The notes under the pieces are model-generated. The model saw nothing but the letters and a program-made list of their open reading frames with translations, did no database searches and had not been told where the DNA came from. A stretch of 64,000 nt of DNA from contig JAXHMZ010000004.1 of NCBI GenBank assembly GCA_034521025.1, positions 41,315-105,314 on the forward strand. The letters run 5' to 3'. The DNA comes from Candidatus Campbellbacteria bacterium. GTDB taxonomy: Bacteria > Patescibacteriota > Minisyncoccia > Phycocordibacterales > JAXHMZ01. Of this stretch, positions 23,676-49,616 are shown in pieces (position 1 is the stretch's first letter; every line of letters begins with the position of its first letter). A program made the position numbers and the translations under genes.

Positions 23676-24689
23676 ATGAGGAACGGTATCAAAAGACACG
23701 TTATAAGCTATCTGGCAATTGGACTTGCTGCTTTTGCCCTGCTCTTTTTCATAGCTCCTCAAAATGTAAGAGCAACAAGTGATCCACCACCAATGGTCAC
23801 CATAGAAGCCGAGTTAAATGATAATCTTTTTACACTGAAAAGAACTTGTTTGGATCAAAATTGTTTCTTTGTTCTTGAGGAAGATCAAACGGGTGATTTT
23901 TCTATAAAACGAGCTCACGACAAAGAAGATGAGTTCTCTATTCTTACTAGAGGAAGTGTATCGCGCGAAAACAATCGTATACGAATTCAACCTGATCCCT
24001 ATAGCATAAGGTACAAAGACGTTCCCTTTCGCGAAGACGCGTTAGTAGAAGCGTTGAAGGTGTTGATTCAAGATGATATTTCCGACATCAAACCAGTTTT
24101 ACTGCAAACATTTGAAGGATGGGCAAGAGTGGGAAGAGGGGCAAGCTTCACAGTTACTCCATATGAACCGAGCAAGGAAAGGGAACTTCAGAAAGACAAA
24201 AATAGACTTCTTGAGTGCTTCTTTAATGAGTACGAACGAAAAGGTGATTGGTTGATCATTTCAGAAGGAAATACTCGTGAGTACTGTTATCCGGATGGAA
24301 ATTTTAGTAGGTCGATTAACTACTCGCACTTTACGTATTTTCTTTTGACCAATATACACCAACTTCCTACCTATATTGGTCAATTACCTATTTTTCACCT
24401 TGTTATACTAATACTCATACTACTGGGCGTTGTAGGATTTATGTATCACCTCATCAGGAAAGGAAATTTTTGGCTTTTCTTGAAACCGAATAAAACCAAA
24501 GTAATTTTAGTAGTCGTATCAGGAATCATATTGACGGTCATATTCGCCGCTAAGTATATGCAACCAGGCCCTGCGATGTCCGTTGTTATTGGCGCGCGTA
24601 TAATAGATTATCTTATACAAATATATCTCCTTATCTGTGTGATCGGATATGTAATTTATAAGCTTAAGAATAGGCGGGAAACAAACTAA
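23676..24689 (+). CDS. Family member A of a paralogous 4-TM, 4-Cys surface protein family.
   Basis: It has a signal/TM helix, a PPP motif, CLDQNC, a second Cys pair (C...YCYPD) and three C-terminal TM helices. It shares FL(K/R)PNKTK...SGIILT...IDYL(I/V)(Q/E)IYLL(I/T)CVIGY with the genes at 28073 and 29268. Confidence 0.6.
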   Translation: MRNGIKRHVISYLAIGLAAFALLFFIAPQNVRATSDPPPMVTIEAELNDNLFTLKRTCLDQNCFFVLEEDQTGDFSIKRAHDKEDEFSILTRGSVSRENNRIRIQPDPYSIRYKDVPFREDALVEALKVLIQDDISDIKPVLLQTFEGWARVGRGASFTVTPYEPSKERELQKDKNRLLECFFNEYERKGDWLIISEGNTREYCYPDGNFSRSINYSHFTYFLLTNIHQLPTYIGQLPIFHLVILILILLGVVGFMYHLIRKGNFWLFLKPNKTKVILVVVSGIILTVIFAAKYMQPGPAMSVVIGARIIDYLIQIYLLICVIGYVIYKLKNRRETN

Positions 24690-26443: not shown

Positions 26444-26977
26444 ATGGTAGAAAATGTAACCCTTTTATTATCTATACTTACGGTCGTCGCGCAGATCTTT
26501 ATTTTTTTCGCGATAGTTGAGTTAATCCGGACAAGGGGCAAAAAAAAGAATTCTATGATCTTGCGATTGGTTGATCGCACTCCTGTCTTGTATTCATTTT
26601 TTATTGCCGCCTTAGCAATGCTCGGTAGTTTGTTCTATTCTGAAATAGCCCAGTATGATCCGTGTGAGTTTTGTTGGTATCAACGTATTCTTATGTACCC
26701 CTTAGTCGTATTGTTTGGCCTAGCTCTCTTGCGACGTGACCGTAATATTCTCCCTTATGGTTTCATTCTTAGTATAATCGGCGCAATAATTGCCCTCTAT
26801 CATTATCTAATGCAACTGGGATTCATTGCGCCAACAACCTGCAGCGCTGTGGGTGTATCGGTCTCTTGTTCCGATTCGTTTACGGTGACGTTCGGATACA
26901 TAAGTATTCCGATGATGGCCCTGACGGCATTTGCATTAATTATTATATTTTCAGTAATTTCACAAAAAAATGACTAA
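26444..26977 (+). CDS. DsbB/BdbC-family disulfide bond formation protein B.
   Basis: It has four TM helices. The motif YDPCEFCWYQRILMYP matches the BdbC CxxC. A second Cys pair lies in a periplasmic loop. Confidence 0.7.
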   Translation: MVENVTLLLSILTVVAQIFIFFAIVELIRTRGKKKNSMILRLVDRTPVLYSFFIAALAMLGSLFYSEIAQYDPCEFCWYQRILMYPLVVLFGLALLRRDRNILPYGFILSIIGAIIALYHYLMQLGFIAPTTCSAVGVSVSCSDSFTVTFGYISIPMMALTAFALIIIFSVISQKND

Positions 26978-27416
26978 CTATCAAAAATGGGCGCTTACTA
27001 GTTTACGCGTAGGCCTCGGATGGCTCTTCTTCTATGCGGGTATTACTAAAATTTTCGATCCGACCTGGTCTGCAGGGGTATTTCTTAGCAATGCTTCGAC
27101 TTTCCCAGAAATGTACGAATTTTTCGCGCATCCTGACGTGTTGCCGATCGTTAATTTGCTCAATGAGTGGGGACTCACGTTGCTCGGTGTTTCGCTTATA
27201 ACCGGTGTACTTGTTCGGGTTTCCGCGCCGCTTGGAGTACTGTTGATGCTTCTCTACTATCTTGCTTCGCTCGACTTTCCGATGGTGGGAGAGCATTCGT
27301 ATATAGTCAATGATCACATAATCAAAGTGCTCGCTCTTTTGACCCTTGTTGCGTTTAACGCCGGACGATACAAAAGCCTTGGTACTGTTATACGAAAAGG
27401 TCTTAAAAAGAAATAG
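26970..27416 (+). CDS. DoxX-family membrane protein.
   Basis: The N-terminus is MTNYQKWALTSLRVGLGWLFFYAGITKIF. It has four TM helices and overlaps dsbB by 8 bp. Confidence 0.7.
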   Translation: MTNYQKWALTSLRVGLGWLFFYAGITKIFDPTWSAGVFLSNASTFPEMYEFFAHPDVLPIVNLLNEWGLTLLGVSLITGVLVRVSAPLGVLLMLLYYLASLDFPMVGEHSYIVNDHIIKVLALLTLVAFNAGRYKSLGTVIRKGLKKK

Positions 27417-27473: not shown

Positions 27474-27546
27474 GGGCCATTAGCTCATTCGGTAGAGCGC
27501 ATCGCTGGCAGCGATGAGGTGACCGGTTCGATTCCGGTATGGTCCA
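27474..27546 (+). tRNA. tRNA-Ala (anticodon GGC).
   Basis: Acceptor GGGCCAT/ATGGTCC has a G3:U70 pair. D-arm is GCTC-ATTCGGTA-GAGC, anticodon loop CTGGCAG, T-arm ACCGG-TTCGATT-CCGGT. Confidence 0.8.
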
Positions 27547-27551
27547 CATTT

Positions 27552-27944
27552 ATGTTCGAAAATATGAACAGTGAAGGTGAAAACAGATCGACACCTGAGT
27601 TAGACAACCTACTAAAGCAAAGAGAAGAAGTCACTCGCCGTCTTTATGTAATGATGTTTGAAAATTTGGCGATATTTGGCGTGCCGGCTTTTGTGGCGCT
27701 CGTTGTTGGCTTGAAGTTGCGTGAGGAGTGGGGAAACATTGCTCTGTTTGCTTTGCTGGCTCTAGCTCTTGTTGTTTCTTGGTTGATCTTCTTCAGAAGA
27801 TATCGTTACTTTACCGGTGAGCTCGCCAAGCTAGAAACCGCGATCAAAAATGAAAGAAAAAGAGCCGGGATACCGGAACCGGAAGCGCCTGGCTACCCCG
27901 ACGAAGAAGAGGAAGAGAGCGACGAGGAAAAAGAAGAAGAATAA
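27552..27944 (+). CDS. Small two-TM membrane protein with an acidic C-tail.
   Basis: The ORF-track start at 27519 overlaps the tRNA, so ATG 27552 (or 27564) is more likely. The C-terminus is EEEEESDEEKEEE. Confidence 0.4.
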   Translation: MFENMNSEGENRSTPELDNLLKQREEVTRRLYVMMFENLAIFGVPAFVALVVGLKLREEWGNIALFALLALALVVSWLIFFRRYRYFTGELAKLETAIKNERKRAGIPEPEAPGYPDEEEEESDEEKEEE

Positions 27945-27970
27945 TAAAAATGACCAAATATAGCGATTCT

Positions 27971-28000
27971 AAATGCTTCAATCTATAGATTGAAGCATTT
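27971..28000. repeat. Palindrome copy 2 (identical to copy 1).
   Basis: AAATGCTTCAATCTATAGATTGAAGCATTT. It lies 26 bp after the upstream stop and 72 bp before the family-B start. Confidence 0.9.
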
Positions 28001-28072
28001 AATTGGTGGTTTGTAAGGTGTTTACTTCACTTTTGAGATTTTGTGATAAAGTTGACTTAAAGTTTTATAGTT

Positions 28073-29103
28073 ATGGCATACGTAAAAATTATAAAAACAT
28101 TAAGAAATTTTATAATCTATCCGGCTATAGTATTCGTGGTTCTCGGGATATCTCTTTATGTGGCTCCGCAAACTGTGGCAGCGATTAGTCCTCCTCCACC
28201 ACCAGAACCGGAAATTTATATAGAAGCTTCACTAGACGAAAACTTCTTTACACAAGAGACACAAGAGCGGGTCTGTTTGGATCAGGGCTGTACTTTTGTG
28301 TTAGAACCTGAACAAGATTCTGATGCCTATTACTTAAAAAAGGCTCACGAGCAAGGTCAGAAAGAAGAGCTTTCTTTACTGGGGATCGTGTCGCTTGAAG
28401 AGGGTTCCGTACTAATCACACCCAGTTCTTCACAGGAAGAGATTTCGCTAGATGAAAAAGCCCTTGTCGAGGCGTTAGATATGTTGATTGAAAATGACAT
28501 TTCTCCAATTGAATCTGATCTCTTACAAACACTTGAAAGATGGGCAGATTGGCAGTGGCAGATGGTGGTTATTCACTGTTGCCCACATACGAACAACAAG
28601 GGACAAGAGAACTCCAAAAGCAAAGAATAGGCTTTTTGATTTCATGTTATTACCCTGGGTACGAGCAAAGAGGAAGCTGGTTAATCACTATTGGAAACCA
28701 ACAGCGTGATTATTGTTCTGGTGGTCCCATGGATCACTCAAACTTTGCTCTTTATTTGTTGACCCATATTCCCGAACTACCAGTTACTTACCTCACTGGT
28801 CTAATTTTTGTACTGCTGGGCGCAGTGGTATTCATATATTATCTTGCCAGAAAAAATGAGCTCTGGTTCTTTCTAAGACCAAATAAAACTAAACTAATTA
28901 TAGTGATAATATCAGGGGCTATTCTCACATATCTACATATACCCTACATGCATTATTTCCCATATGATGTCCATCTAGATTTCCAAGAGCTTCTTTATAT
29001 TTTCGGCGCTTGGGTCATAGATTATCTCGTAGAAATATATCTCCTTACATGCGTGATCGGGTATGCGATGTACAGGCGCAGGATTAAGCGTACAACTAAT
29101 TAA
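28073..29103 (+). pseudogene. Family member B, disrupted by a frameshift near 28545-28560.
   Basis: Two overlapping ORFs (28073..28630 and 28540..29103) together align end to end with gene C. The frame change falls in a short direct repeat (tggcag tggcag), as if by slippage. Confidence 0.6.
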
Positions 29104-29158
29104 CTTTCACGGCTTCGTTGAATAACTTTGGAAGTTGTTCAACAAATATAGTGATCCT

Positions 29159-29188
29159 AAACGCTTCAATCTATAGATTGAAGCGTTT
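29159..29188. repeat. Palindrome copy 3 (variant AAACGC...GCGTTT).
   Basis: T>C in the left arm and the matching A>G in the right arm keep perfect dyad symmetry. The upstream ~55 bp are shared with copy 4. Confidence 0.9.
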
Positions 29189-29267
29189 ATTTGGTGTTTT
29201 GTGAGGTGTTTACTTCATTTTTTAGATTTTGTGGTAGCTTAAACTTAAGGTATTTTAATTGTAATAA

Positions 29268-30293
29268 GTGCAGAAAATGACAAAAACATCAAGGGGTTTT
29301 ATAGATTATCGTATAATCGGACTTTCTGCTTTTGTGTTGTTCTTCATTGTAGCTCCACAAACTGCGTCGGCCCTTAGTCCGCCGCCGGCGCCAAAGATTT
29401 ACATAGAAGCATCATTAGATGAAGGCCTTTTTACACAAGAGCAGATTTGTTTAGATCAAGGTTGTGCTTTCGTATTTGGCCCCGAGCAATCTTCTGATTT
29501 TTATTATATAAAGAGAGCTCACGAGCAGGATCAAGAAGAAGGCCTTTCTTTTTTTGGACAAGTATCGCTTGAAAAGAACTTTTTGCAGATTGAGCCTCCT
29601 ACCAGTCTCGAAAACAAAGATGTTCCTTTAGATGAAGCTGTGCTTGTTGATGCATTGGATGTGTTGATCGATGATGATATTTCTGACATCGAACCAATTC
29701 TATTACAAGCATTTAAAGAATGGACGGGGTCAAGGTACGGAGAAAGTCTCACTGTTGCACACCGTGAATCGGCCGAAGGGCGAGCACTAAAAGCATCGAA
29801 GAATACACTCGTTTTATGTAACTATATCGAATATCAACGAGAGGGAGATTGGTTGGTCACTCAAGGGAGCGTTGAGCGAAGCTACTGCTATCCAGACCAT
29901 AATACAATAGGTGTTTTTGGTCCACCGGATGTATCGATTCGCCATTCACACTTTGCGTTTTATTTACTGACTCATATGCACGAATTACCTATCTTTTACC
30001 TCGCTGGATTTATTCTCGTACTCCTGGGTGTTGCGAGGTTCATACATCGACGCATCAAGAGAGGGGAATTCTGGCTTTTTCTGAGACCGAATAAAACAAA
30101 AATAATTATACTGATCGTTTCCGGAATCATTTTGACTTACATATTAACTACAGAATATATGGAGCCGGGATTGGATGATGTGCGTTATATTCTCAGCACT
30201 TGGGTCATAGATTATCTTGTAGAAATATACCTCCTCACGTGCGTGGTCGGGTATGCGATGTATAAGCGAAGGATTGAGCGAGTAAGGAAATAA
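29268..30293 (+). CDS. Family member C (intact).
   Basis: It has a signal/TM helix, PPPAPKIYIEASLDE, CLDQGC, C..YCYPD and three C-terminal TM helices ending IDYLVEIYLLTCVVGYAMYKRR. Confidence 0.6.
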   Translation: MQKMTKTSRGFIDYRIIGLSAFVLFFIVAPQTASALSPPPAPKIYIEASLDEGLFTQEQICLDQGCAFVFGPEQSSDFYYIKRAHEQDQEEGLSFFGQVSLEKNFLQIEPPTSLENKDVPLDEAVLVDALDVLIDDDISDIEPILLQAFKEWTGSRYGESLTVAHRESAEGRALKASKNTLVLCNYIEYQREGDWLVTQGSVERSYCYPDHNTIGVFGPPDVSIRHSHFAFYLLTHMHELPIFYLAGFILVLLGVARFIHRRIKRGEFWLFLRPNKTKIIILIVSGIILTYILTTEYMEPGLDDVRYILSTWVIDYLVEIYLLTCVVGYAMYKRRIERVRK

Positions 30294-30786
30294 CTCGCGT
30301 CACTCAATAATGTTTGTTTTGTGCAAAAACATTGGAAGTAACGAGCTTGTATGATTATCAAGAATTCTCCAGTATCGTGGCAAGCTGAATCGCAAGAGCA
30401 CTTAAGATACCAATTAAAGATTTACCGTGAACATCACCTAACAAAAAGTTGTTAAATATTACACGAACCCCGAATTGTTTGAAAAAATTTCAAAAGAAAC
30501 GCAACAAAAAATGAGGGAGGGCAAAGGTCACATGGCTGCATCTGTGGAGGTACTGCGCAAATACCAAAACGAACTCCGCGATGCGCTCGGTGGTCCGCAG
30601 CAGTAATTCCAGCACTAGCGTAAGATAAAAGATTGTGGTATCGTCTCAGCAGAGAGGCGTCTTGGGGAGGACGTCTTTTCGTTTCTAGACGCAGTTACAG
30701 TACCAAGATGACTGTGACACTTGCACATTGACAGGGGAAGGAAGACAGAGGCAGGAAGAACAAATCCACCGAAAGGAGGTGAAATC

Positions 30787-32058
30787 ATGTACCGAACGCA
30801 AGTAGCTCGCGCCGCAATCGTTCTGTTTTGGATGACCTTAATGACGGTTGCGTTCGCGCAGCCATACGAGATTGTCCGGGCGGGCGACGAAAATCTGACG
30901 TTGCGCGTCGAGCGGGGGTTTACCCCGTGGGATTTCTGGGTGGCGAATGCCGACCGGAACACCTGCGGCTGGTCGGACTTCCGTCCGGCCGTAAACGCGC
31001 TCAACCCAAGCCATGTGGCGAGTGAGTTTCGCGCGATTGCGATCGACTCCGAATTCCGTGTGCCACAAGCGTGTGCTTCGGGCATAGTCAACGTGGCGCC
31101 AGCAGAAACGGATCTTGCACTGCTCGCAGAGAGCATCGATCGTTTCTCGGCGGCATTGGCCAATGCCGCGTCTCGGAACACGGTGAGCAGTGTAGAATTC
31201 GAGGAAATCGAGCAGCGCGTCAAGGGGGTTGAGGAGCGCATCGCTGAACTCGAAAACAACGATGAGCGGCTCAGCGGCCAAGTCGACGAGCTCTCCGCTT
31301 TCGTCGATGCGAGGTTCGCGAACCTCGCCCGAGAGCGCGACACCGGCGTGTTTTGGCAGTGGCCATATCGCTGGTGGGTGAGGGTTCTTATCTTTTTTGT
31401 GATCCTCGCGATTGTGGTTGCGCTACTCTACTACATAGAGCGCATCCGGAATGAGCGAAATCGCCAAAAAGGAAACCCTCCTGACCCGAAGTCGCGTATC
31501 ACGAAGATGCAGGATGAAATAGCCCGGCTTCGTGATAAAAATCAAGAGCTTCGAGACGAAGCTGTGGCCTACAAAGGAGCTCGCGACAAACTTCGCGAAG
31601 AAGTTGCGTTACTCAGAAATACGATCGAACGGCATAATGAAGAAAGCAACAAAATCCGCGAAGAACGCGATCGCGAAGTTGAAGCGCTTCGCGAAGAAGT
31701 GGATCGGCTTAGCAGGCAGGCGAAAGCATACCCCGAGGGGCATGTCGAGCGCGTGACAGTGCAGAACAAAACAACAGGAGGGGAAAAGGCCATGCTGTTA
31801 AAGCACGAACCTCCATATGTCACGGTATTCGACACCGACGGGAATCACATTAGTGGTCCCATGCACCGCAAAACGGCGATCAAACGCGCCGAAGAGAGCG
31901 AAGAAGAATCTGCTCATGCTAGAGGTGAGGTCGTCGAATCCGAGAAAACGTCAGAGGGGTCTTCCAAGAAAGGCAATCCCTCAAAAACACGCCGGGGCGG
32001 CAGACACGCCCATCGACGAAGGCAAAATCGCAACAAGAAGGACAAAGTGACGTCGTAG
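30787..32058 (+). CDS. Island-encoded bitopic membrane protein with a signal peptide, an ectodomain of about 190 aa, a TM helix and an R/E-rich cytoplasmic coiled coil with a basic tail.
   Basis: A GGAGGTG RBS lies 7 nt before ATG 30787. The order is signal peptide, TM helix VLIFFVILAIVVALLYYI, then heptad-like repeats (ARLRDKNQELRDEA...EALREEVDRLSRQ). The minus-strand ORFs 30615..31343 and 30838..31281 are GC-rich shadows. Confidence 0.6.
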   Translation: MYRTQVARAAIVLFWMTLMTVAFAQPYEIVRAGDENLTLRVERGFTPWDFWVANADRNTCGWSDFRPAVNALNPSHVASEFRAIAIDSEFRVPQACASGIVNVAPAETDLALLAESIDRFSAALANAASRNTVSSVEFEEIEQRVKGVEERIAELENNDERLSGQVDELSAFVDARFANLARERDTGVFWQWPYRWWVRVLIFFVILAIVVALLYYIERIRNERNRQKGNPPDPKSRITKMQDEIARLRDKNQELRDEAVAYKGARDKLREEVALLRNTIERHNEESNKIREERDREVEALREEVDRLSRQAKAYPEGHVERVTVQNKTTGGEKAMLLKHEPPYVTVFDTDGNHISGPMHRKTAIKRAEESEEESAHARGEVVESEKTSEGSSKKGNPSKTRRGGRHAHRRRQNRNKKDKVTS

Positions 32059-32204
32059 CTATACTCGACCAGTTGAAGCTTCAAGTGTGTCACACTTGTT
32101 GAGCGCCTGGTGTAGGTTGATGCTCCTGCTCATGTTGTAGCAGTAGAGCGCCCGTGGAGAGTAAACAGTTATCGACGTGCTTGATACATTTCTTCCCCAC
32201 CCCT

Positions 32205-32238
32205 GACTCCGCGGTCTCCCCGCCGCGGAGTTTTTTTA
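32205..32238 (+). terminator. Rho-independent terminator ending the island gene.
   Basis: ctccgcgg-tctccccg-ccgcggag followed by T7. Confidence 0.7.
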
Positions 32239-32282
32239 TACGTCAGCAAATTGATACACTTATACATATGGAAGAAAGACCT

Positions 32283-32508
32283 ACGTCATACCGATTGCGC
32301 GCACTGCTGGTGACTTTTATCGTTGTACTGATTGTTTCCGGAATCATTTTGAGTGCATATTAACTACAGAATATATGGAGCCGGGTTTCGATGATGTGCG
32401 TTATATTCTTAGCACTTGGATGATAGATTATCTTGTAGAAATCTATCTCCTTACGTGTGTGATCGGGTATGCGATGTACAGGCGCAGGATTAAGCGTACA
32501 ACTAATTA
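32283..32508 (+). pseudogene. 3' remnant (family member D) of a 4-TM family gene. It is a mosaic of C-like and B-like sequence and has an internal frameshift.
   Basis: 32283-32460 is nearly identical to the gene C 3' end, with a 1-nt indel that creates the stop at 32361. 32460-32508 and the following ~90 bp match the gene B 3' end and its downstream flank. Confidence 0.55.
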
Positions 32509-32564
32509 ACTTTCACGGCTTCGTTGAATAACTTCGGAAGTTGCTCAACAAATATAGGGATCCT

Positions 32565-32594
32565 AAACGCTTCAATCTATAGATTGAAGCGTTT
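32565..32594. repeat. Palindrome copy 4 (AAACGC...GCGTTT variant), 65 bp upstream of the atpB ATG.
   Basis: Identical to copy 3, including the flanking sequence. Confidence 0.9.
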
Positions 32595-32659
32595 ATTTAT
32601 TGAATAGTTTATCAGTTCTGCTTGCCCAAAGCGCTCTGCCGCGGTATCCTGAAGCGCGT

Positions 32660-33439
32660 ATGCTACACATATCACTGCCCGCAGAAACACTGTTTACTAT
32701 ATTGGGCTTTCCGGTCACTAACACTATGGTGACCGCTTGGGTTGTCATGGCGATAATATGCGCGGTGGCTTGGGCAGTAAGCCGTACGATGAAAACGGTT
32801 ACAGTTGGAGGCGCTGGAGATACAGAAGCCACAAAATCTCCCGGACGCATCGCTGTTTTGGTAGAAATGGTAGTAGGAGGACTTCTAAACTTTTTGGCCA
32901 TGATAGGAGGAGGAGAAGAAAGAGCCAGGCGTTATTTCCCTATTGTGGCCACGATCTTTATATTCGTGCTCGTTTCTAATTGGTTTGGAATAGTGCCGGG
33001 TATCGGCTCGATCATTGTTGAGCAGATGCACAATGGGGAAGTTTCGGCTGTGCCGGTACTTCGTACAGTTTTCTCTGACTTAAATATGACACTCGCACTC
33101 GCCTTTATTGCCGTAATTATGAGTCACGTTATTGGCGTGCGCAGTTTGGGCTTAGGTCACGTACAAAAATATATTTCCTTTAAAAGCCCGGTAGCGTTTT
33201 TTGTGGGGATACTTGAATTCATCGGCGAGATAGCGAAGATCGTCTCTTTTTCCTTTCGTCTTTTTGGCAATATTTTTGCGGGAGAAGTTCTTCTTGTAAT
33301 TATCGCGTTCTTAGTACCAATAGTGTTGCCGATCCCATTTATGGGGCTAGAGCTTTTTGTCGGAGTTATTCAAGCTCTCATATTTGCTGTTCTGACTATG
33401 ATATTCTTTGCCTCAGCTGAAGAACACGCTGAGCATTAA
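32660..33439 (+). CDS. atpB: F0F1 ATP synthase subunit a.
   Basis: MLHISLPAETLFTILGFPVTN matches the typical AtpB N-terminus. The conserved Arg is in LFGNIFAGE...SFRLFGN. The TTG at 32600 is an alternative start. Confidence 0.85.
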   Translation: MLHISLPAETLFTILGFPVTNTMVTAWVVMAIICAVAWAVSRTMKTVTVGGAGDTEATKSPGRIAVLVEMVVGGLLNFLAMIGGGEERARRYFPIVATIFIFVLVSNWFGIVPGIGSIIVEQMHNGEVSAVPVLRTVFSDLNMTLALAFIAVIMSHVIGVRSLGLGHVQKYISFKSPVAFFVGILEFIGEIAKIVSFSFRLFGNIFAGEVLLVIIAFLVPIVLPIPFMGLELFVGVIQALIFAVLTMIFFASAEEHAEH

Positions 33440-38546: not shown

Positions 38547-38813
38547 ATGCACGAAAAATTTAAGTGTAAAATAGCAACTCCTCTTGGAAACGTATTTGAC
38601 TCCACAGTGGAAAGGGTAACGATTCCGACAGAGTCCGGAGAAATAACCGTACTTGCTCACCATGAACCTTTAGTCGCATTGGCGCGCAAAGGGGCGGCAA
38701 TTCTTGAAATTGAAGATTCTAGTGAAAAACACTTTGAACTTGGAGAAGGAGTTGTGGAAATGAGGCGAGACGGAACTCTGCTTCTTTTGCTAGAAAGTGC
38801 AGTGGAAAAATAA
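38547..38813 (+). CDS. atpC: F0F1 ATP synthase subunit epsilon (88 aa, beta-sandwich only).
   Basis: IATPLGNVFDSTVERVTIPTESGEITVLAHHEPLV matches the epsilon N-terminal domain. There is no C-terminal helical hairpin. Confidence 0.75.
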   Translation: MHEKFKCKIATPLGNVFDSTVERVTIPTESGEITVLAHHEPLVALARKGAAILEIEDSSEKHFELGEGVVEMRRDGTLLLLLESAVEK

Positions 38814-38862
38814 AATCCTCCAACGGATAGTGTGTGTTTAAAAAATTAAAGTTGAGAAAACA

Positions 38863-39300
38863 ATGACAAATAACAAAAAGACTCTGATCGCGATCTATTG
38901 CTCCGACCCGCGTTTTACGGGATCGGCTGAATCTAGAGCGATAGAGAGCTTTAAGAACAAATTTGAAAACGAACTGGGGCTTTCGATCGAAAGCGTGGAT
39001 TTTATTCGTATTCCCGGACCTGATGCTCTAGCAGTCAAATATAGCGATGAAAAACGTAATGCTACTACAAGTTTTATACTAGATCTAATAGGAGCACATA
39101 ACGTAGTTGGTGTAGCTATCGCGGGGCATAGCGACTGTGCCGGCAATCAAGCTAGTGACGAGGATCACAGAAAGGACACAATAAGCTCCGCTGAGTATCT
39201 TCATGATACTATTTTTCAAGGTCCAGTGGGTGCGTTCTTGATGTTTCCTCCGAGCGACGGTAGAGAAGAAAGAGTAGAGACTCTAAAGTTAATTTCATAG
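38863..39300 (+). CDS. Small beta-carbonic-anhydrase-like protein.
   Basis: It carries the beta-CA zinc-ligand signatures CSDPRF (CxDxR) and GHSDCAG (HxxC). It is shorter than canonical beta-CA, so the activity is uncertain. Confidence 0.4.
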   Translation: MTNNKKTLIAIYCSDPRFTGSAESRAIESFKNKFENELGLSIESVDFIRIPGPDALAVKYSDEKRNATTSFILDLIGAHNVVGVAIAGHSDCAGNQASDEDHRKDTISSAEYLHDTIFQGPVGAFLMFPPSDGREERVETLKLIS

Positions 39301-39348
39301 TCAAGCTGGCAACTTAGAAGATGCGTAATTTAATTAGTTATTTATCTA

Positions 39349-39780
39349 TTGAATAGAGCTTTTATTAGCAACTACTTGCATTATCAAGGACTTTATGGTC
39401 AAAATAGTTCCTGTGATATGAAATATGTAGTTAAAAGAATTATTAATCTATTTCCCGGAAGGTTTCTTTTTGCCGGTCTAAATGGAAACAACCTAGGTAA
39501 AGAAGAAGATGATCGGGAGGTTATAAATATACTTGCGCGCTATAGGGAGATCAAGCAAGAACAAAACGCGATCGTAATAGAGACTGCGTTACCTATAACC
39601 GAATCCGACAAGAAAAGTGTTAGAGATATGTTGGGAGCGCCGGAGAATACTTTAGTCGTTGAGAAATTAAGTCCCGCACTAGTTAATTCGTTGCAGATAA
39701 TATATCAAGGTCAGATATATAGTTTCCAAAGCGATAATAGGTTAGAGAAAGTAAAAAAGAATTTTATACACATAAAATAG
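39349..39780 (+). CDS. Hypothetical protein.
   Basis: ORF only. The start could be ATG 39418. Confidence 0.35.
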   Translation: MNRAFISNYLHYQGLYGQNSSCDMKYVVKRIINLFPGRFLFAGLNGNNLGKEEDDREVINILARYREIKQEQNAIVIETALPITESDKKSVRDMLGAPENTLVVEKLSPALVNSLQIIYQGQIYSFQSDNRLEKVKKNFIHIK

Positions 39781-39843
39781 AGTTCCGGCGCCTTGAGTTT
39801 GTGTGCTATAGTAGCATTGTTCGATCCTAAATGAGTCAATTCT

Positions 39844-40164
39844 ATGCAAGAACTTTTGGATTATAATTGCGAGGAAATAGACAAAAAAGAACTCTCGCAA
39901 GAAGAGATAGATGAATATCTTGATGAACTTCCCGACTGGAACTTAAATGAAGATTCTACTATCTCCAAATCGGTTACTTTTGATTCATTTGCGGAAGCGG
40001 TTGAGTATGTGAATTCTGTTGCGTCAATTGCAGAGTCTGAAGATCATCATCCGGATATTGATCTGCGCTATAATACTGTTTATCTAAGACTGACCACTCA
40101 CGACCTCGGAGATCTAACACTTTGTGATTTTGTTGTCGCGGCTAAAATAAGTGGACTAAGTTAA
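39844..40164 (+). CDS. Pterin-4-alpha-carbinolamine dehydratase (PCD/DCoH).
   Basis: The SEDHHPDIDLRYNTV motif matches the PCD signature. Confidence 0.8.
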   Translation: MQELLDYNCEEIDKKELSQEEIDEYLDELPDWNLNEDSTISKSVTFDSFAEAVEYVNSVASIAESEDHHPDIDLRYNTVYLRLTTHDLGDLTLCDFVVAAKISGLS

Positions 40165-40182
40165 AAAAGTAAAAACAAAACT

Positions 40183-40434
40183 ATGGGAATTAAAGATTTC
40201 ATGACAAGAAAACTCCTTGAGCGTCAGATGAAAGATATGCCCAAGGATCAGAGGGATATGATCATAGCGGCAGTGCAAAAAAATCCCGAACTTTTTGAAA
40301 AAATATCAAAGGAAATACAAGAGAAAACCAAACAAGGCAAAAATCAAACGGCTGCCGCTATGGAGGTTATGAGAGCGCACCAGAGTGAATTACAACAAGC
40401 AATGCAAGATGTAGGTCAAAACAACAATAATTGA
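40183..40434 (+). CDS. Small hypothetical helical protein.
   Basis: ORF only. Confidence 0.35.
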   Translation: MGIKDFMTRKLLERQMKDMPKDQRDMIIAAVQKNPELFEKISKEIQEKTKQGKNQTAAAMEVMRAHQSELQQAMQDVGQNNNN

Positions 40435-40563
40435 TCTATTAAGTTTTACCTTGCGCAAAATTGAGAATAATTGTAAAACTAAACCAGTAATCCTATATAA
40501 GGATTTTGTTGTTTAAGTGAATAGAATTCTGGCTGTAGGCATTCCGAGAAAGGAGAGAGAGTT

Positions 40564-40857
40564 ATGAGACGGCTACTGGGTGTTTTCTTGCTGATCGCCC
40601 TGTCGAGCATAATAACCAGGATGAATGGTACTCCAATTGCTTGGGAGACGTTGGTAAGCTTTGTCTTGGTTATGGCGCTCCTTTGTGTGCTGTTTCTTCC
40701 GTACATAGCAAGATGGTACAACAACGGAAACAGTTGCGATGAATTGGAGGCGGAACTGACTAGACTGAGAAGAGAAAACGATGAATTGAGAAGAAAGAAC
40801 CAAGAAAAATACCAAAAAGGAATTCTAGTAAAAACAGACAAATCAAAGACTAGCTAA
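40564..40857 (+). CDS. Hypothetical two-TM membrane protein with a C-terminal coiled coil.
   Basis: An RBS aggagagag precedes the start. The C-terminus shows LEAELTRLRRENDELRRKN. A hairpin terminator at about 40863-40893 follows. Confidence 0.4.
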   Translation: MRRLLGVFLLIALSSIITRMNGTPIAWETLVSFVLVMALLCVLFLPYIARWYNNGNSCDELEAELTRLRRENDELRRKNQEKYQKGILVKTDKSKTS

Positions 40858-40923
40858 ATCAAAGCGCCCGTAGTTCAGCGGAGCGCTTTTTATTTAACGG
40901 TTTTTTGCTACAATGCGCTCTGT

Positions 40924-42027
40924 ATGAGCTTATCTATTGGCATAGTAGGTTTGCCAAATGTTGGCAAATCAACCCTTTTTAACGCGTTAACACGTAATAA
41001 TGTTTTGGCGGCTAATTATCCGTTTGCCACGATCGATCCTTCGGTGGGTGTGGTTGCAGTGCCGGATGAAAGGGTGGAAAGACTTTCTAAGTTATCAAAT
41101 TCAAAGAAAACCATTCCGGCAGTTGTCGAGTTCGTTGATATTGCCGGGTTAGTGAAGGGAGCGTCAACGGGAGAAGGTCTGGGAAATGCGTTTCTTTCAA
41201 ACGTGAGAGAAACGAACGCGATAGCGGAAGTGGTGCGAATTTTTGAAGATGAAAGTGTTACTCATGTTAGCGAAAAAATAGATCCGCTTGATGATATCGA
41301 GACAATAAACCTGGAACTGATCTTGTCCGACGAGCAAACAATAGCCAAAAGGCGCGGGAATATAGTGAGAGACGTAAAACGAGGAGACAAAGACGCCGTA
41401 GAGGAAGACAGAGCTCTCGAGAACTTAGAGAAAACACTCCGGGAAGGTGTTTTTATTTCACACAAAGGACTCAATAGTGATTTAGAAGAAAGGTTGGCAA
41501 GAGAGCTCAATCTTCTGACAGCAAAACCTCTAATTTACGTTTTAAATAAAAAAGCCGGTGCAAAAAACTTGGATGAAATAGACGACGAGAGATTTAAAAA
41601 ACTGATGAGCTTTTTAGAAGGTTCCAAAAGTGAATATGTGATCGTTGACGCAGGCATAGAAGACGAGTTAAAAGACATTGAAGCTCGTGAAAAGGGAGTA
41701 TTTCGCGAGGAACTTGGAGCGCCGGGAGATGACGGCATAAGTAACCTCATAAAATCAGGATATGCATCACTTGATCTGATCTCTTACTTCACTACCGGGG
41801 AGGACGAAACCCGTGCCTGGACAACCAAGCGAGGATCTACAGCCCCAGAAGCTGGAGCGGCGATCCATACGGACTTCAAAGAAAAGTTTATCCGAGCCGA
41901 AGTTATTTCATACGGTGAATTGATCGCGATCGGGTCTTTCGCCAAAGCCCGTTCCGAAGGAAAGATACGTACTGAAGGAAAAGAGTACGTGGTAGAAGAT
42001 GGCGATGTTATCGAGTTTAAAATTTAG
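40924..42027 (+). CDS. ychF: Ribosome-binding ATPase YchF (Obg-family).
   Basis: GIVGLPNVGKSTLFNALT is present, followed by a TGS domain at the C-terminus. Confidence 0.9.
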   Translation: MSLSIGIVGLPNVGKSTLFNALTRNNVLAANYPFATIDPSVGVVAVPDERVERLSKLSNSKKTIPAVVEFVDIAGLVKGASTGEGLGNAFLSNVRETNAIAEVVRIFEDESVTHVSEKIDPLDDIETINLELILSDEQTIAKRRGNIVRDVKRGDKDAVEEDRALENLEKTLREGVFISHKGLNSDLEERLARELNLLTAKPLIYVLNKKAGAKNLDEIDDERFKKLMSFLEGSKSEYVIVDAGIEDELKDIEAREKGVFREELGAPGDDGISNLIKSGYASLDLISYFTTGEDETRAWTTKRGSTAPEAGAAIHTDFKEKFIRAEVISYGELIAIGSFAKARSEGKIRTEGKEYVVEDGDVIEFKI

Positions 42028-42178
42028 ATATATTTAATATAATAAAAGCTTGTCATTGTTCTAATTTACTTGTCTAATATATATGATATACTGCCTTAGT
42101 AACACGCTGGACTAGATGTTTAGCTACGTTTAGCAGACTATTTGGGAATTATTTATACCTTTTACTAATTTGGGCTTT

Positions 42179-45067
42179 ATGACTAAATACGACCACAAGG
42201 ATATAGAGGAAAAATGGCAAAAATTTTGGGCGAAGCAAGATCTATATAAAGCCGTCGATAATTCAGATAAAGAAAAATATTACATTTTGGATATGTTCCC
42301 ATACCCGTCCGGTTCGGGGCTTCACGTGGGACACGTAGAGAGTTATACAGCAACCGATATCTACTCTCGTTTTAAGAGAATGCAGGGCTATAACGTTCTT
42401 CACCCAATGGGTTGGGATGCGTTCGGATTACCGGCAGAAAACTACGCAGTCAAGACTGGCGTTCCCCCGCAAGAAACCACAGACAAGTCTACTGATGTAT
42501 TTAGAGAACAGATAAAATCTCTTGGCCTTTCTTATGATTGGTCGCGAGAGATCAATACATCCTCTCCAGAATATTACAAATGGACACAGTGGCTTTTTTT
42601 GTTGCTTTACAAAAATAAACTGGCGTACAAAAAGAAAGCCACAGTAAATTGGTGTCCCGGATGTCAGACTGTCTTGGCCAATGAGCAGGTAGTGGACGGA
42701 GAGTGCGAAAGGTGTGATTCGGCCGTGGAAAAGAAAGAATTATCACAGTGGTTTTTCAACATTTTAAAATATGCCGACGAGCTAATTGATGGTTTAGATA
42801 CGGTAGACTGGCCAGAGTCTACAAAACTGGCTCAAAAAAATTGGATAGGAAAAAGCGAAGGAGCTATTTTTAGATTTCCCCTGAATAAAAAATTTCGTTA
42901 CGTGATCTTACATGGGTACGCGAGTGGCCCTGAAAAGCATTTTTTGCCTTGGCTCAGGAGGAAACTAGAGGAGCAAGGTCACTCTGTAGAAATTCCCACA
43001 CTACCGAACTCTGACGATCCAAACATTGAAGAGCAAGTAAAATATGTAAATGAAAACGTTAATTTAGATGAAGATACAATACTCTTAGGACATTCGCTTG
43101 GTACTGTAGTTGCTCTAAAGTATCTTGAAAATTCAAACAGCAAGATCCATGAGCTTGTGTTGTTCGGTGGGTTTATCGATACCGATATCAACGTAGACCG
43201 GGACTTTTTTGAGACCTTTGATTGGAAGTTTGATTTCGAGAATATAAAGGATAAGTCTCGAAGTATAAAAATTGTTCGAGACGAAAGCGATGATTCTATA
43301 CCGCCTGAACAGGCCGAAAAAATTGAACGCAGGATCGGCGGTGAGATCATAGATGTGCAGGCTCGCAAACCACATTTCAGAGATTCAGAAGAGCCAGAGG
43401 TACTGCGTACTTCACTTCCGTCAATCGAAGTGTTTACTACTCGTCCTGATACTTTATTTGGTGCTACTTATATGATCGTTTCTCCTGAGAACAGCTTGGT
43501 AGAAAAATATGCTAAATATATTGAGAATATTGATGAGGTCAGGAGTTATGTAGAGAGCGCAAAAGCGAAAACAGATATTGAACGAAGCTCAGAAGAAAGA
43601 GAGAAAACCGGGGTTGAATTAAAGGGACTGAAAGCGATAAATGAAGCAACGAAAGAGGAGCTGCCTGTGTTTGTCGCGGACTATGTTTTGAATACTTATG
43701 CTACAGGCTCGATCATGGCTGTTCCAGCTCATGATGAGAGGGATCATCAATTTGCCGAGAAGATGAATTTGCCTATTGTCGAAGTTGTATCCGGCGAAGG
43801 TGATCTGCCCAGGTCTGAGCCGGGTGTACTTATAAACTCTGGTGAATTTGATGGATTTTCTAACGCTGAGGCGAGGAGCAAAATTACTGAAGCATTTGGA
43901 GGAGAGATAAAAACAACTTATAAACTAAGAGATTGGCTAGTATCGAGACAGCGTTACTGGGGAGCACCAATTCCTATAGTGTATGATCCGGAAGGAAACC
44001 CCCATCCAATTCCCGAAAAATACTTACCGTGGGAGTTACCTACGGATGTAGATTATCAACCAAAAGGAACAGCGCCTTTGGGTTCTTCAGAAGAGCTAAA
44101 AAAGCGCACCGAAGAAATTTTTGGAGAAGGATGGACTCCGGAGATCGATACCATGGACACCTTTGTTGATTCAAGTTGGTACTATATGCGCTTTACAGAT
44201 CCACAAAACGCGGATGAATTCGCTAATAGTGAAAAATTGGATTCTTGGCTTCCCGTTGATATGTATATAGGAGGAGCGGAGCATACTGTATTGCACTTGT
44301 TGTATGCGCGATTTTTTACAAAAGTACTTCGAGATCTTGGTTATCTGGGGATAGACGAACCTTTTCAATCCCTAAGACATCAAGGTATGATACTTGGTCC
44401 GGACGGAAATAAAATGAGCAAAAGCAAGGGGAATATTGTTAACCCAGATGAAATGATGGAGCGCTTTGGAGCTGATACTGTTCGAATGTATGAGATGTTC
44501 ATGGGGCCACTAGAGCAAGCCAAAGCATGGTCTACTGACAATATGATCGGCCTAAGAAGATTCTTGGAGAAGTCATGGCGACTACAAGAAAAAGTTACAG
44601 AAAAAAGTGAGACTGCAGGTAGTATTGTAGCTCGCACGATCAAAAAAGTTACCGAAGATATTGAAAACCTCCAGTTTAATACCGCGATCTCTGCCTTAAT
44701 GATCTTAGCTAACGATTTTGATAAGAAAGAAAAGATCTTAGAGGCGGATTTCGAAGCTTATTTGCGTCTATTGGCACCATTTGCTCCACATATTACTGAA
44801 GAGATGTATCAGAATTTGGGCTATAAAACTTCAGTCCATTCGACTAAATGGCCTGAATTTAAAGAAGAAGACCTGTCTCTAGATGAGTTGACCTTAGCAG
44901 TACAGGTAGACGGTAAGGTACGAGATTCGATCACGGTTCCGAGCGAGGCGAACGAGGAAGAGATAAAACAAATGGCTCGTACCGAAAAGGTAGAAAAATG
45001 GATAGACGGCAGAGAAGTTAAAAAAATAATCGTTATACCGGGGAAGATCGTTAGTATCGTCCTATAA
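42179..45067 (+). CDS. leuS: Leucine--tRNA ligase with an inserted alpha/beta-hydrolase domain of about 175 aa.
   Basis: HIGH (HVGHVESY) and KMSKS motifs are present, along with the editing and anticodon-binding regions. Between NWIGKSEG and TTRPDT there are about 190 aa, where E. coli LeuS has about 20. Confidence 0.9.
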   Translation: MTKYDHKDIEEKWQKFWAKQDLYKAVDNSDKEKYYILDMFPYPSGSGLHVGHVESYTATDIYSRFKRMQGYNVLHPMGWDAFGLPAENYAVKTGVPPQETTDKSTDVFREQIKSLGLSYDWSREINTSSPEYYKWTQWLFLLLYKNKLAYKKKATVNWCPGCQTVLANEQVVDGECERCDSAVEKKELSQWFFNILKYADELIDGLDTVDWPESTKLAQKNWIGKSEGAIFRFPLNKKFRYVILHGYASGPEKHFLPWLRRKLEEQGHSVEIPTLPNSDDPNIEEQVKYVNENVNLDEDTILLGHSLGTVVALKYLENSNSKIHELVLFGGFIDTDINVDRDFFETFDWKFDFENIKDKSRSIKIVRDESDDSIPPEQAEKIERRIGGEIIDVQARKPHFRDSEEPEVLRTSLPSIEVFTTRPDTLFGATYMIVSPENSLVEKYAKYIENIDEVRSYVESAKAKTDIERSSEEREKTGVELKGLKAINEATKEELPVFVADYVLNTYATGSIMAVPAHDERDHQFAEKMNLPIVEVVSGEGDLPRSEPGVLINSGEFDGFSNAEARSKITEAFGGEIKTTYKLRDWLVSRQRYWGAPIPIVYDPEGNPHPIPEKYLPWELPTDVDYQPKGTAPLGSSEELKKRTEEIFGEGWTPEIDTMDTFVDSSWYYMRFTDPQNADEFANSEKLDSWLPVDMYIGGAEHTVLHLLYARFFTKVLRDLGYLGIDEPFQSLRHQGMILGPDGNKMSKSKGNIVNPDEMMERFGADTVRMYEMFMGPLEQAKAWSTDNMIGLRRFLEKSWRLQEKVTEKSETAGSIVARTIKKVTEDIENLQFNTAISALMILANDFDKKEKILEADFEAYLRLLAPFAPHITEEMYQNLGYKTSVHSTKWPEFKEEDLSLDELTLAVQVDGKVRDSITVPSEANEEEIKQMARTEKVEKWIDGREVKKIIVIPGKIVSIVL

Positions 45068-45152
45068 GCTTATGTAAATTACAAATATTTAGAAAATATA
45101 AATTTGACTATTTGTAAAATCAGTGTTAATATAAATCAAATTAAAAAAGAAA

Positions 45153-46196
45153 ATGTCCAGAAAACTAACATTTAAACCCAACCAAGTAACAAAGAAACTA
45201 ATTATAGTTCTTCCAGAACGAGCAAGAGATATAATAGTAGCTCGCTATGGACTTGGACAGAATCGCGAAAAAATGACCCTAGAAGGAATAGGGAATCTTT
45301 ATGGTATCACCAGAGAGCGCGTTAGGCAGATAGAAAACCATTCCCTAAATTCAATTCGTAAGTCAGAGCAATATGAAGAACATCAGATATCTTTCAAGGA
45401 GCTTGAAGAGATCATCAGATCTCTCGGAGGTGTAGTAGCTGAAGAGGATCTTCTAAAACATCTATCAGACAGCGAAAGGATTCAGAACCACATAGTATTC
45501 CTTTTAGAGCTAGGAAATAACTTCAAGAAACAAAAAGAAGATAAACACCTAAAGCATCGTTGGTACATTGAGGACGAATTACACGATAAGGTGCACAAAG
45601 CGATACAAGATCTCTATTCTAACCTGACTGACGAAGAGCTGGTTACTGAACCGGAGATCATCAGTCGATTTCTCGAGCACGTTAAAGATGTCTCTGAAGA
45701 ATATAGAAACGAAGAGATCGCTAGGCGGTGGCTTGGTGTTGCTAAGCATATAGATCGTAATCCTCTTGGCGAATGGGGACGATCCACTTCTCCTAATGTG
45801 AGAGTTAAGGGAATGAGAGACTACGCTTATCTGGTGATTCGAAAACATGGTTCCCCAATGCATTTTCGTGAGGTTGCCGAAAAAATTAATGAAATGTTCG
45901 GCAAGAAGGCTCATATCGCGACTACTCACAACGAATTGATAAAAGATCCTCGCTTTGTGCTTGTAGGTAGAGGTTTGTACGCTCTACGTGAGTGGGGTTA
46001 CGAAACCGGAGTGGTAAAGGATGTTATCAAATCGATACTTAAAAAACACGGACCACTTTCAAGAGAGAACATAATGGAGAAAGTTATGAAGGAGCGTTAC
46101 GTGAAAGGGAACACGATCCTCGTTAATCTCCAAGATACGGAAGTCTTTGGAAAAGACTCAAGAGGTAGGTACTATTTAAAAGGTAGCTCAAAGTAA
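45153..46196 (+). CDS. Sigma-70 region-4-like HTH protein with a C-terminal HARE-HTH domain.
   Basis: LPERARDIIVARYGL...TLEGIGNLYGITRERVRQIENHSL resembles sigma region 4.2. The C-terminal segment HFREVAEKI...RFVLVGRGLYALREWG resembles HARE-HTH. Confidence 0.5.
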   Translation: MSRKLTFKPNQVTKKLIIVLPERARDIIVARYGLGQNREKMTLEGIGNLYGITRERVRQIENHSLNSIRKSEQYEEHQISFKELEEIIRSLGGVVAEEDLLKHLSDSERIQNHIVFLLELGNNFKKQKEDKHLKHRWYIEDELHDKVHKAIQDLYSNLTDEELVTEPEIISRFLEHVKDVSEEYRNEEIARRWLGVAKHIDRNPLGEWGRSTSPNVRVKGMRDYAYLVIRKHGSPMHFREVAEKINEMFGKKAHIATTHNELIKDPRFVLVGRGLYALREWGYETGVVKDVIKSILKKHGPLSRENIMEKVMKERYVKGNTILVNLQDTEVFGKDSRGRYYLKGSSK

Positions 46197-46261
46197 AACG
46201 CTTACTCTATTTTCTTTGTAGGGAAAGACGTTCAGAATCTTTCTGATATAATGTAACTGAT

Positions 46262-47506: not shown

Positions 47507-47507
47507 T

Positions 47508-48473: not shown

Positions 48474-48520
48474 AATTTTCTCGGTTTTAAATACTTGGTA
48501 AGTATAATAGTGTAAACGCT

Positions 48521-49603: not shown

Positions 49604-49616
49604 TATACTACCCACT

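Follow-up and report, generated by a model that had tools for sequence, protein, structure and literature searches.

How does a strikingly GC-rich gene come to lie in a genome of 0.42 GC? The question is raised by an island of about 1.9 kb (~30340 to ~32250) in a 64-kb stretch of DNA from a Candidatus Campbellbacteria bacterium (contig JAXHMZ010000004.1, positions 41,315 to 105,314 of the forward strand), where it is located upstream of atpB, between the paralogs C and D of a tandem gene array. The whole 64-kb stretch is referred to below as the window, the contigs compared with it as L001–L011, and the protein relatives of the island product as P0002–P0008. The evidence presented here indicates that the island is a second copy, at an ectopic site, of a unit that is lineage-specific and evolves very fast, consisting of a small gene, a gene for a putative LysM-like membrane protein, a structured 3' RNA and a terminator; that this copy was imported from a related lineage is a reading to which we give a probability of about 0.6. 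Here the copy is found upstream of the atp operon in a genome-specific tandem array, where it replaces ~0.8 kb of unit D.

Composition and content of the island

In 300-nt windows, GC content climbs from ~0.40 to 0.50–0.61 across 30600–32250, while all other 1-kb bins of the 64-kb window stay at or below 0.465. The 423-aa gene at 30787–32058 has a GC content of 0.556 and a GC content at third codon positions (GC3) of 0.616, against means of 0.418 (sd 0.025) and 0.376 (sd 0.036) for the 55 other long open reading frames (ORFs) on the same strand, which corresponds to z-scores of 5.5 and 6.6. A sequence-only reading made earlier had described a GC-rich island of ~2 kb with GC-rich third positions, and these values agree with it. 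The tetranucleotide comparison that it proposed as a check gave a divided answer: the raw distance is maximal at the island within the window (z 6.5–6.8), but after normalisation for GC the signature is ordinary relative to the rest of the window (correlation z −0.3). The GC-rich part covers ~30520–32240 (~1.7 kb) and the leftmost ~180 nt of the island are AT-rich; the compositional step, at ~30500–30520, lies inside the island, between the small gene and the membrane-protein gene, and not at a junction. The island contains the entire unit, i.e., a frameshifted copy of the small gene, the membrane-protein gene, the structured 3' RNA and the terminator, and its features are as follows:

30294–30350, plus strand: left junction zone, in which 30318–30339 resembles the flank of B and D, and 30340–30350 (11 nt) precede the ATG of the small gene
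30351–30606, plus strand: frameshifted copy of the small gene (~80 aa), recognized by homology to the small genes of relatives
30653–30692, plus strand: terminator-like hairpin after the small gene, then a conserved 11-mer, TTTCTAGACGC; shared with L002
30775–30779, plus strand: Shine-Dalgarno sequence GGAGG, 7 nt upstream of the ATG at 30787
30787–32058, plus strand: gene for a 423-aa type-I membrane protein, assigned from composition, homology, hydrophobicity and predicted structure
32062–32163, plus strand: structured 3' RNA region, made up of a closing stem and a pair of two-tier hairpins that both end in GAGCGCC
32205–32240, plus strand: intrinsic terminator, with an 11-bp stem (7 GC pairs) and T7 at 32205–32237, forming the right end of the island

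The island had been credited with a strong Shine-Dalgarno and a terminator of its own, and both are in place. It had also been said to encode one membrane-anchored coiled-coil protein; the transmembrane (TM) segment and long helices of that protein are predicted here as well, but the small gene at 30351–30606 had been overlooked, as had the structured 3' RNA and the degraded native copy of the unit at 40183–40857. The small gene runs from the ATG at 30351 to a stop at 30455, and reading resumes in the +1 frame to 30606. The frameshift amounts to one surplus A in the run 30443–30447, and its deletion restores a product of 84 aa that is 40–43% identical to native small proteins (43% to the window's resident copy) and has the motif NPELFEKISKE in common with the resident copy. 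The GC content of the island small gene is 0.42 (0.36 in the first half) and its GC3 is 0.435. Upstream of the closest relative, the small gene (L002:1–165) has three in-frame stops, two TGA and one TAA, so that it is a pseudogene in L002 too, though that copy adjoins ychF.

The Shine-Dalgarno tract GAAAGGAGGTGA is identical between the island and L002, and the hairpin at 30653–30692 is kept in both despite one-sided and two-sided changes. In the 3' region, 32 predicted pairs are kept between the island and L002, with 4 compensatory changes and none broken; L003 and L004 have 25 pairs (4 compensatory) and L008 and L011 have 31 pairs (3 compensatory). A structured region of ~100 nt lies between stop codon and terminator in the relatives (L002:1470–1575; L003:5380–5470; L004:8670–8765; L008:2858–2968; L011:8978–9098), and at five of six loci the minimum-energy fold includes the two-tier hairpin, which is built of GCUC, a variable inner stem, a loop, the inner stem, a UU/UA bulge and GAGC. 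The 3' region gave no Rfam match in the window (E up to 10), nor did L002, L003, L004 and L008 (E up to 5 or at gathering score). A covariance model made from L008 and L011 recovered only its own inputs and none of the other subgroups; since this two-sequence model reached no further, common short motifs and the shape of the hairpins are the only basis for relating the 3' RNA between subgroups.

No terminal direct or inverted repeats were found at the island ends. Between 30294 and 32316 no plausible gene is listed besides the frameshifted small gene and the one for the 423-aa protein, neither of them a recombinase gene, and the remaining listed ORFs overlap these two in other frames or on the opposite strand. 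No recombinase domain was detected in the 423-aa product or in the Pfam-scanned neighbour proteins. Within the island, therefore, the absence of integrase and transposase reported by the sequence-only reading is confirmed.

Relatives of the unit and GC enrichment as a family trait

Word-indexed protein searches returned only proteins of the metagenome-assembled genome (MAG) itself plus P0002 and P0006, with P0002 being 38% identical by BLASTP and 48% by global alignment. An exhaustive HMMER search (two-sequence profile, 1.84 billion representatives) returned 10 proteins, six of which (P0003–P0008) have the N-terminal domain in common; their E-values range from 8e-13 to 9e-6, and that of P0002 is 3e-200. 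The five full-length ones keep a common architecture of signal peptide, a domain with the pattern GFTPWxFW...C.W.DFR...LNP...VP, a TM segment, a coiled coil and a basic RRGG...TS tail, and the island protein has the same layout (signal peptide, GFTPWxFW...LNP...VP, TM, coiled coil, basic tail).

Gene order is the same in L003, L004–L006, L008 and L011: the atp operon (atpC) is followed by a hypothetical gene (117–118 aa in L003, L004 and L008, 145 aa in L011), the gene for pterin-4a dehydratase, the small gene of ~80 aa and the membrane-protein gene. In L003, L008 and L011 the next gene is ychF; the contigs of L004–L006 end just after the membrane-protein gene. L008 and L011 continue with a DUF5671 gene, and L008 further with leuS, a sigma factor gene, a DUF8128 gene, yceG and mnmA. 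In L002 (from SRR34348036), which carries the closest relative (48%), the start of ychF follows the gene and is the sole visible neighbour gene. The island itself does not occupy this canonical position, downstream of the atp operon and between the genes for pterin-4a dehydratase and ychF. A distant member, P0005 (L009:8001–8966), is found after ftsA, ftsZ and a thioredoxin-reductase-like gene, not at the atp–ychF locus, so the family is not strictly tied to one site.

Between genomes the membrane protein is only 25–31% identical, against 87–91% for AtpD, 71–76% for YchF and 71–81% for the small protein, and the pair formed by the island and L002, at 48%, is the closest of all. Pattern scans of the GTDB species representatives (185,579 genomes) and of JGI metagenomes gave no true relatives, three DNA-pattern matches in the collection scans being due to chance; a pattern scan of viral contigs and tblastn searches of phage and plasmid collections likewise gave no relatives. 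Nothing relevant was found in the literature on Campbellbacteria with regard to horizontal gene transfer and GC content, or on the Candidate Phyla Radiation (CPR) with regard to LysM.

Five related contigs have neighbour genes that can be scored, and on each of them GC3 peaks at the membrane-protein gene (z against the neighbours 2.5, 1.5, 4.9, 3.3 and 4.7 in the five loci). The values are:

L003, 4146–5348: GC3 of the gene 0.474, neighbours 0.406
L004, 7579–8625: GC3 of the gene 0.476, neighbours 0.411
L008, 1877–2839: GC3 of the gene 0.498, neighbours 0.387
L011, 8001–8969: GC3 of the gene 0.508, neighbours 0.363
L009, 8001–8966: GC3 of the gene 0.450, neighbours 0.294
L002, 335–1465: GC3 of the gene 0.52, GC of the flanks 0.41–0.48

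Because the gene is GC3-enriched in six of six host contexts (these five contigs plus L002, the latter compared with its own short non-coding flanks), GC richness appears to be a trait of the family rather than the signature of a donor genome. The island copy is the extreme, with a GC3 excess of +0.24 where native copies have +0.065 to +0.16. The sequence-only reading had named a high-GC host or neighbour as a possible source of the island, should the organism be an episymbiont, and had advised a look at the taxonomy of the best protein hits, for example for Actinobacteria. That proposal is not borne out: every homologue detected lies in a Campbellbacteria-like contig of 37–45% GC, and the GC3 enrichment is family-wide.

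The native site in this genome

From 38547 to 49603 the window is collinear with the related loci, but at the site where the membrane-protein gene is expected there is only an ORF of 97 aa:

40183–40434, plus strand: native small gene, intact, 83 aa, in the canonical position after the pterin-4a dehydratase gene
40564–40857, plus strand: native-site stump, a 97-aa ORF in the canonical position of the membrane-protein gene, with ychF following at 40924

The native small protein is 71–81% identical to those of L003, L004 and L008. In the stump, which ends in ...KTS and has no ectodomain, the N-terminus is hydrophobic and there are one TM segment and a short coiled coil. Its juxtamembrane sequence, RLRRENDELR, resembles RLRDKNQELR of the island protein (motif RLRxxNxELR), which is also its best match in the family, although a weak one. 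The structured 3' RNA is absent at the native site, and only a terminator region of 66 nt precedes ychF. Altogether, the 97-aa ORF looks like an internally deleted remnant of the family: the sequence support is weak, while position and layout agree. A second assembly calls the ORF at the native site as 78 aa.

The tandem array and the junctions

The array is made of units of ~1188 nt (paralog gene plus flank), bounded by perfect or near-perfect palindromes of 32 nt:

23676–24689: paralog A, more distant, intact
27955–29142, plus strand: array unit B, flank included; a frameshift breaks its paralog into ORFs 28073–28630 (185 aa) and 28540–29103 (187 aa)
29268–30293, plus strand: array unit C, an intact paralog of 341 aa (338 aa from the ATG at 29277), locus tag U5L75_01875
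32251–32509, plus strand: 3' remnant of paralog D, a pseudogene, with homology clear from ~32316 and possible from 32251
27970–28001, 29158–29189 and 32564–32595, unstranded: 32-nt palindromes (TAAACGCTTCAATCTATAGATTGAAGCGTTTA) at the unit boundaries, found by a repeat scan; they score as terminators

Only C and the distant A are intact, with B split and D truncated. The product of C has a signal peptide and multiple TM segments. The paralog family has no Pfam match and, in a search of a 5.8-billion-protein collection, was confined to this MAG. It may be that the palindromes at the unit boundaries served to guide the tandem duplications. The window's 141-aa gene (27519–27944) has homologues in L004 and L011, and there these directly abut atpB, so that the whole of 27950–32615 is specific to this lineage. 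The ORF call for atpB begins at a TTG at 32600 (32600–33439); judging from L004 (MHISLPSEVLF...), the gene actually starts at the ATG at 32660 (MLHISLPAETLF...).

That the right boundary of the island runs into a 3' fragment of D, as claimed before, is clear: the fragment is 87% identical to C and 91% identical to B, including the flank, and contains a 1-nt shift and an in-frame stop. The match to C obtained when D homology is started at 32251 is equalled by 2 of 1000 shuffles. The accompanying claim, of an insertion that deleted the 5' part of D, can be upheld as an insertion relative to the repeat unit, in which ~0.8 kb of unit D (boundary palindrome, upstream region and ~230 codons) was replaced. 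At the left end, the tract 30318–30339 agrees with the B/D flank at 17 of 22 nt, at a similar position after the stop, and 245 of 1000 shuffles equal this. The ends were also compared with the pterin-4a gene and ychF. Nothing was seen at the left end; at the right end, a marginal match to the ychF start of L002 (18 of 500 shuffles equal it) was put down to chance, given the better match of this tract to paralog C (2 of 1000).

The junctions had been singled out as points to be confirmed with reads. A Logan contig (L001, from SRR26473340), which was produced by a different assembler and is 2090 nt long, is 100% identical to 30384–32473, and it joins the AT-rich small pseudogene, the GC-rich gene and 157–220 nt of fragment D. 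The right junction and the transition from AT-rich to GC-rich sequence are spanned in this way, but the left junction (30294–30384) is beyond this contig. No repeat in the window explains why Logan contigs break at 30384 (L001) and at 40117 (L007). Compared with the window over 40117–49792, L007 differs at 10 of 9676 positions, which indicates strain microdiversity in the sample, and the two break points may mark structural variants in the population.

Origin of the island

The proposed source of the copy is a related Campbellbacteria-like lineage with an L002-type allele; entry would have been by illegitimate recombination and would have involved neither a recombinase nor a target duplication. 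Redundant parts would have decayed afterwards: the small gene of the island would have gained its one frameshift, and the native membrane-protein gene would have shrunk to the 97-aa stump and lost its 3' RNA. Import from a related lineage by this route appears likely to us, if by no great measure. Over the 3' end of the small gene and the intergenic terminator region, the island is 62–69% identical to L002, against 33–49% for native-type loci, and in the 5' untranslated region it is 55% identical to L002, against 35–42%. Beginning with the 3' end of the small gene, the island is thus L002-like, and L002 lies next to ychF in another sample, which favours import. Nucleotide similarity between the island and the native site of the same genome does not go beyond 11-mers. 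The two small-gene copies are only 43% identical, yet a single frameshift separates the island copy from an open frame, so that it must have been under selection for most of the divergence.

Several points weigh against the proposal of an imported ectopic copy. The membrane protein evolves so fast that an identity of ~30% to native-type alleles is not outlying. In the first two-thirds of the small gene the island is 59% identical to L002 and 61–70% identical to native copies; the shared NPELFEKISKE, and the island protein as the best match of the stump, also tie it to the resident locus. Sampling is thin: L002, with 1.8 kb, is the one close relative, and no donor was found. No genome among those found shows an empty site within the same array, nor was an array without the island seen in a related genome, since the search with the family of paralog C matched this MAG only. 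The left junction lies outside the second assembly, which starts at 30384. The GC3 of the island ectodomain (0.72) is beyond the family range of 0.46–0.53, an excess for which the proposal does not account, and the cause of the GC bias is conjecture. The protein of this locus is ~30% identical between genomes whose AtpD is ~90% identical, a pattern that GC-biased repair at a recombination hotspot, or alleles imported again and again, would fit. With regard to the putative glycan binding, the Pfam LysM family (PF01476) was matched by neither the island protein nor any of the 8 family members, even at E up to 1.

The alternative that survives best, though we consider it unlikely, is that the genome's own native unit was copied into the array long ago without any horizontal transfer, and that each site then lost a different part, with the small gene decaying in the array and the membrane-protein gene at the original site. 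It would explain why the stump finds its best family match in the island protein, with RLRxxNxELR in common, and why the small genes have NPELFEKISKE in common, the first two-thirds of the island copy being slightly closer to the resident (67–70%) than to L002 (59%). The GC-normalised tetranucleotide signature is ordinary for the genome, and with GC enrichment family-wide no foreign donor is necessary. Against an internal copy, similarity between island and native site is limited to 11-mers, and the small proteins are only 43% identical and yet separated from function by a single frameshift, as if long under selection. Once the 3' end of the small gene is reached, the island sides with L002, a native-site copy from another sample, and its GC3 excess (+0.24) is larger than that of the native copies (+0.065 to +0.16). 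Under import or duplication alike, the working copy is now upstream of the atp operon, with redundant parts decaying at each site.

More speculatively, the unit could be an exchangeable, hypervariable surface cassette of Campbellbacteria-like CPR bacteria, able to move in the shape of a transcript and functionally to replace a degraded resident, with the GC3 excess as the footprint of a recombination hotspot or of allele import; this is a doubtful extension at present. If it were true, the island would show that the unit can move self-contained to a new site and take over from a decayed resident copy.

The remaining explanations are all very improbable. A high-GC donor outside the CPR, such as an actinobacterial host of an episymbiont, is suggested by a GC of 0.556 and a GC3 of 0.616 in a genome of 0.42 GC, and by an ectodomain whose GC3 of 0.72 exceeds that of any relative. 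However, the homologues are all in Campbellbacteria-like contigs of 37–45% GC and, except for the L009 member, at a conserved position; there was no relative in the 185,579 species-representative genomes or in the phage, plasmid, viral and JGI collections; the co-transferred small gene has a GC of 0.42; and the flanking non-coding parts are conserved with L002.

An assembly chimera, in which a GC-rich segment of another organism was joined at repeats, has no better prospects. The segment does lie between near-identical paralog repeats, L001 stops at 30384 with no window repeat to account for the break, and the sample has strain microdiversity (L007, 10 of 9676 positions). Against this, L001, from another assembler, is 100% identical over 30384–32473 and links pseudogene, gene and D; fragment D differs by 9–13% from C and B, in a family found only in this MAG; and the content of the island is of Campbellbacteria type, not foreign in kind.

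We give as little credence to a mobile cassette mobilised by a recombinase acting in trans, or to a reverse-transcribed copy of an mRNA. The segment is transcript-shaped, its ends matching an expression unit (from 11 nt before the start codon to the T-run of the terminator), it has neither terminal repeats nor a recombinase gene, and the distant member P0005 (L009) stands in a different context; but there is an internal terminator after the small gene, poly(A) and a target duplication are absent, and among the ORFs listed for 22.5–34.4 kb, the part of the window that was screened, there is no reverse transcriptase or recombinase. A single ectopic instance is known, and selection for a working gene would leave the same expression-unit boundaries. 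An integron cassette was rejected because the ORFs of 22.5–34.4 kb include no integrase (a formal attC test was not part of the analysis), and a target of a diversity-generating retroelement because a scan of 22–35 kb showed no repeats of template/variable (TR/VR) type and the same ORFs include no reverse transcriptase.

Predicted properties of the membrane protein

NCBI annotates the 423-aa product as a hypothetical protein of the Candidatus Campbellbacteria MAG, encoded on a contig of 166 kb. The segments predicted in it are:

Residues 1–25 (30787–30861), plus strand: signal peptide, with an N-terminal hydrophobic segment at ~5–24, ending AFA/QP
Residues 26–100 (30862–31086), plus strand: LysM-like ectodomain, from the structure model
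Residues 107–184, plus strand: outer helix, by prediction, with a long helix predicted at 137–184
Residues ~196–221 (196–218 = 31372–31440), plus strand: TM segment, the one strong hydrophobic segment
Residues 234–314 (31486–31728), plus strand: cytoplasmic coiled coil, a long predicted helix
Residues 316–360 (31732–31866), plus strand: small beta domain, only in the island protein and P0002
Residues 399–423, plus strand: basic tail

Basic residues are more numerous after the TM segment than before it. In the model, the ectodomain agrees with the beta-alpha-alpha-beta fold of ~45–65 residues that is typical of LysM domains, and in this sense appears LysM-like. A profile search of the PDB gave nothing below E 0.38, a Foldseek search of the PDB with the full-length AlphaFold2 (AF2) model gave nothing below E 1.4, and the small beta domain at 316–360 had no significant structural neighbour. 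The cysteines C60 and C96 of the island protein are also present in P0002, P0003 and P0004, and such a conserved pair fits an extracytoplasmic disulfide. A DsbB gene (26444–26977) and a DoxX-like gene are neighbours within 26444–27416, just upstream of tRNA-Ala(GGC) and the array. The DsbB-like neighbour suggests that extracytoplasmic disulfide formation is available, perhaps with relevance to the cysteine pair of the ectodomain.

It may be envisaged that the signal peptide is cleaved, that the LysM-like domain with C60/C96 binds a surface glycan, either of the cell's own wall or of a partner cell, and that the helical stalk, TM helix, long cytoplasmic coiled coil and basic tail link the ectodomain to something intracellular. 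On sequence and structure prediction, the protein is probably a candidate surface glycan-binding anchor coupled to a cytoplasmic coiled coil. The extreme divergence of the membrane protein suggests selection from partners or phages. A bitopic coiled-coil protein of the DivIC/FtsB type was considered and rejected: Pfam DivIC matched 4 of the 8 members, in each case sub-threshold (best E 6.5e-4, below the cutoff), and the topology is reversed too, with signal peptide and ectodomain first rather than the N-terminus inside.

Comparison with known systems

The locus carries a caution on method, in that composition alone would suggest a gene from a high-GC host, while the context points to a family trait of a native, fast-evolving locus. 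It also provides a candidate surface determinant, a family without a Pfam match and with a modelled LysM-like ectodomain, that changes far faster than its neighbours. The CPR lifestyle is thought to be contact-dependent, which makes the family a candidate for studies of attachment or interaction with the wall. Two side leads, neither of them strong as yet, are the hairpin-rich RNA without an Rfam match and the gene-specific GC3 excess, which could be used in tests of GC-biased conversion in CPR bacteria.

Among LysM surface proteins (PF01476; e.g., Ecp6, MltD, AtlA and the LysM domains of phage and contractile injection system (CIS) baseplates), the island ectodomain stands apart by the lack of a Pfam LysM sequence match, and by an extra N-terminal strand and the conserved cysteine pair. 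It is fused through a stalk and TM segment to a cytoplasmic coiled coil and basic tail, a type-I layout that is unusual for bacteria.

Hypervariable surface loci, such as those for capsule, O-antigen and surface antigens, exchange alleles between conserved flanks. Xenologous or paralogous displacement is similar to the present case in that the flanks are conserved (AtpD 87–91%, YchF 71–76%) around a gene of 25–31% identity, a divergent allele being gained and the resident degraded. It differs in that here the new allele landed ~8 kb away in an unrelated tandem array, not in place by homologous recombination, and that a small gene and a structured RNA belong to the unit as well. Genomic islands and islets share with this one the compositional anomaly, the discrete segment, the absence of the site in relatives and the surface-protein cargo. 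Unlike them, it measures only 1.9 kb and has no integrase, adjacent tRNA or direct repeats (the nearest tRNA, Ala-GGC at 27474–27547, is 2.8 kb away and outside the array); its cargo copies a native locus, and the anomaly appears to belong to the gene family, not to a donor genome. GC-biased gene conversion, reportedly described by Lassalle et al. in 2015 for recombining bacterial genes, is comparable as an analogy only, in that a locus of apparently fast turnover has raised GC3 in six of six host contexts. Seen against these systems, the event is an ectopic, probably xenologous gene copy with decay of the resident, and as such a case of ordinary genome evolution.

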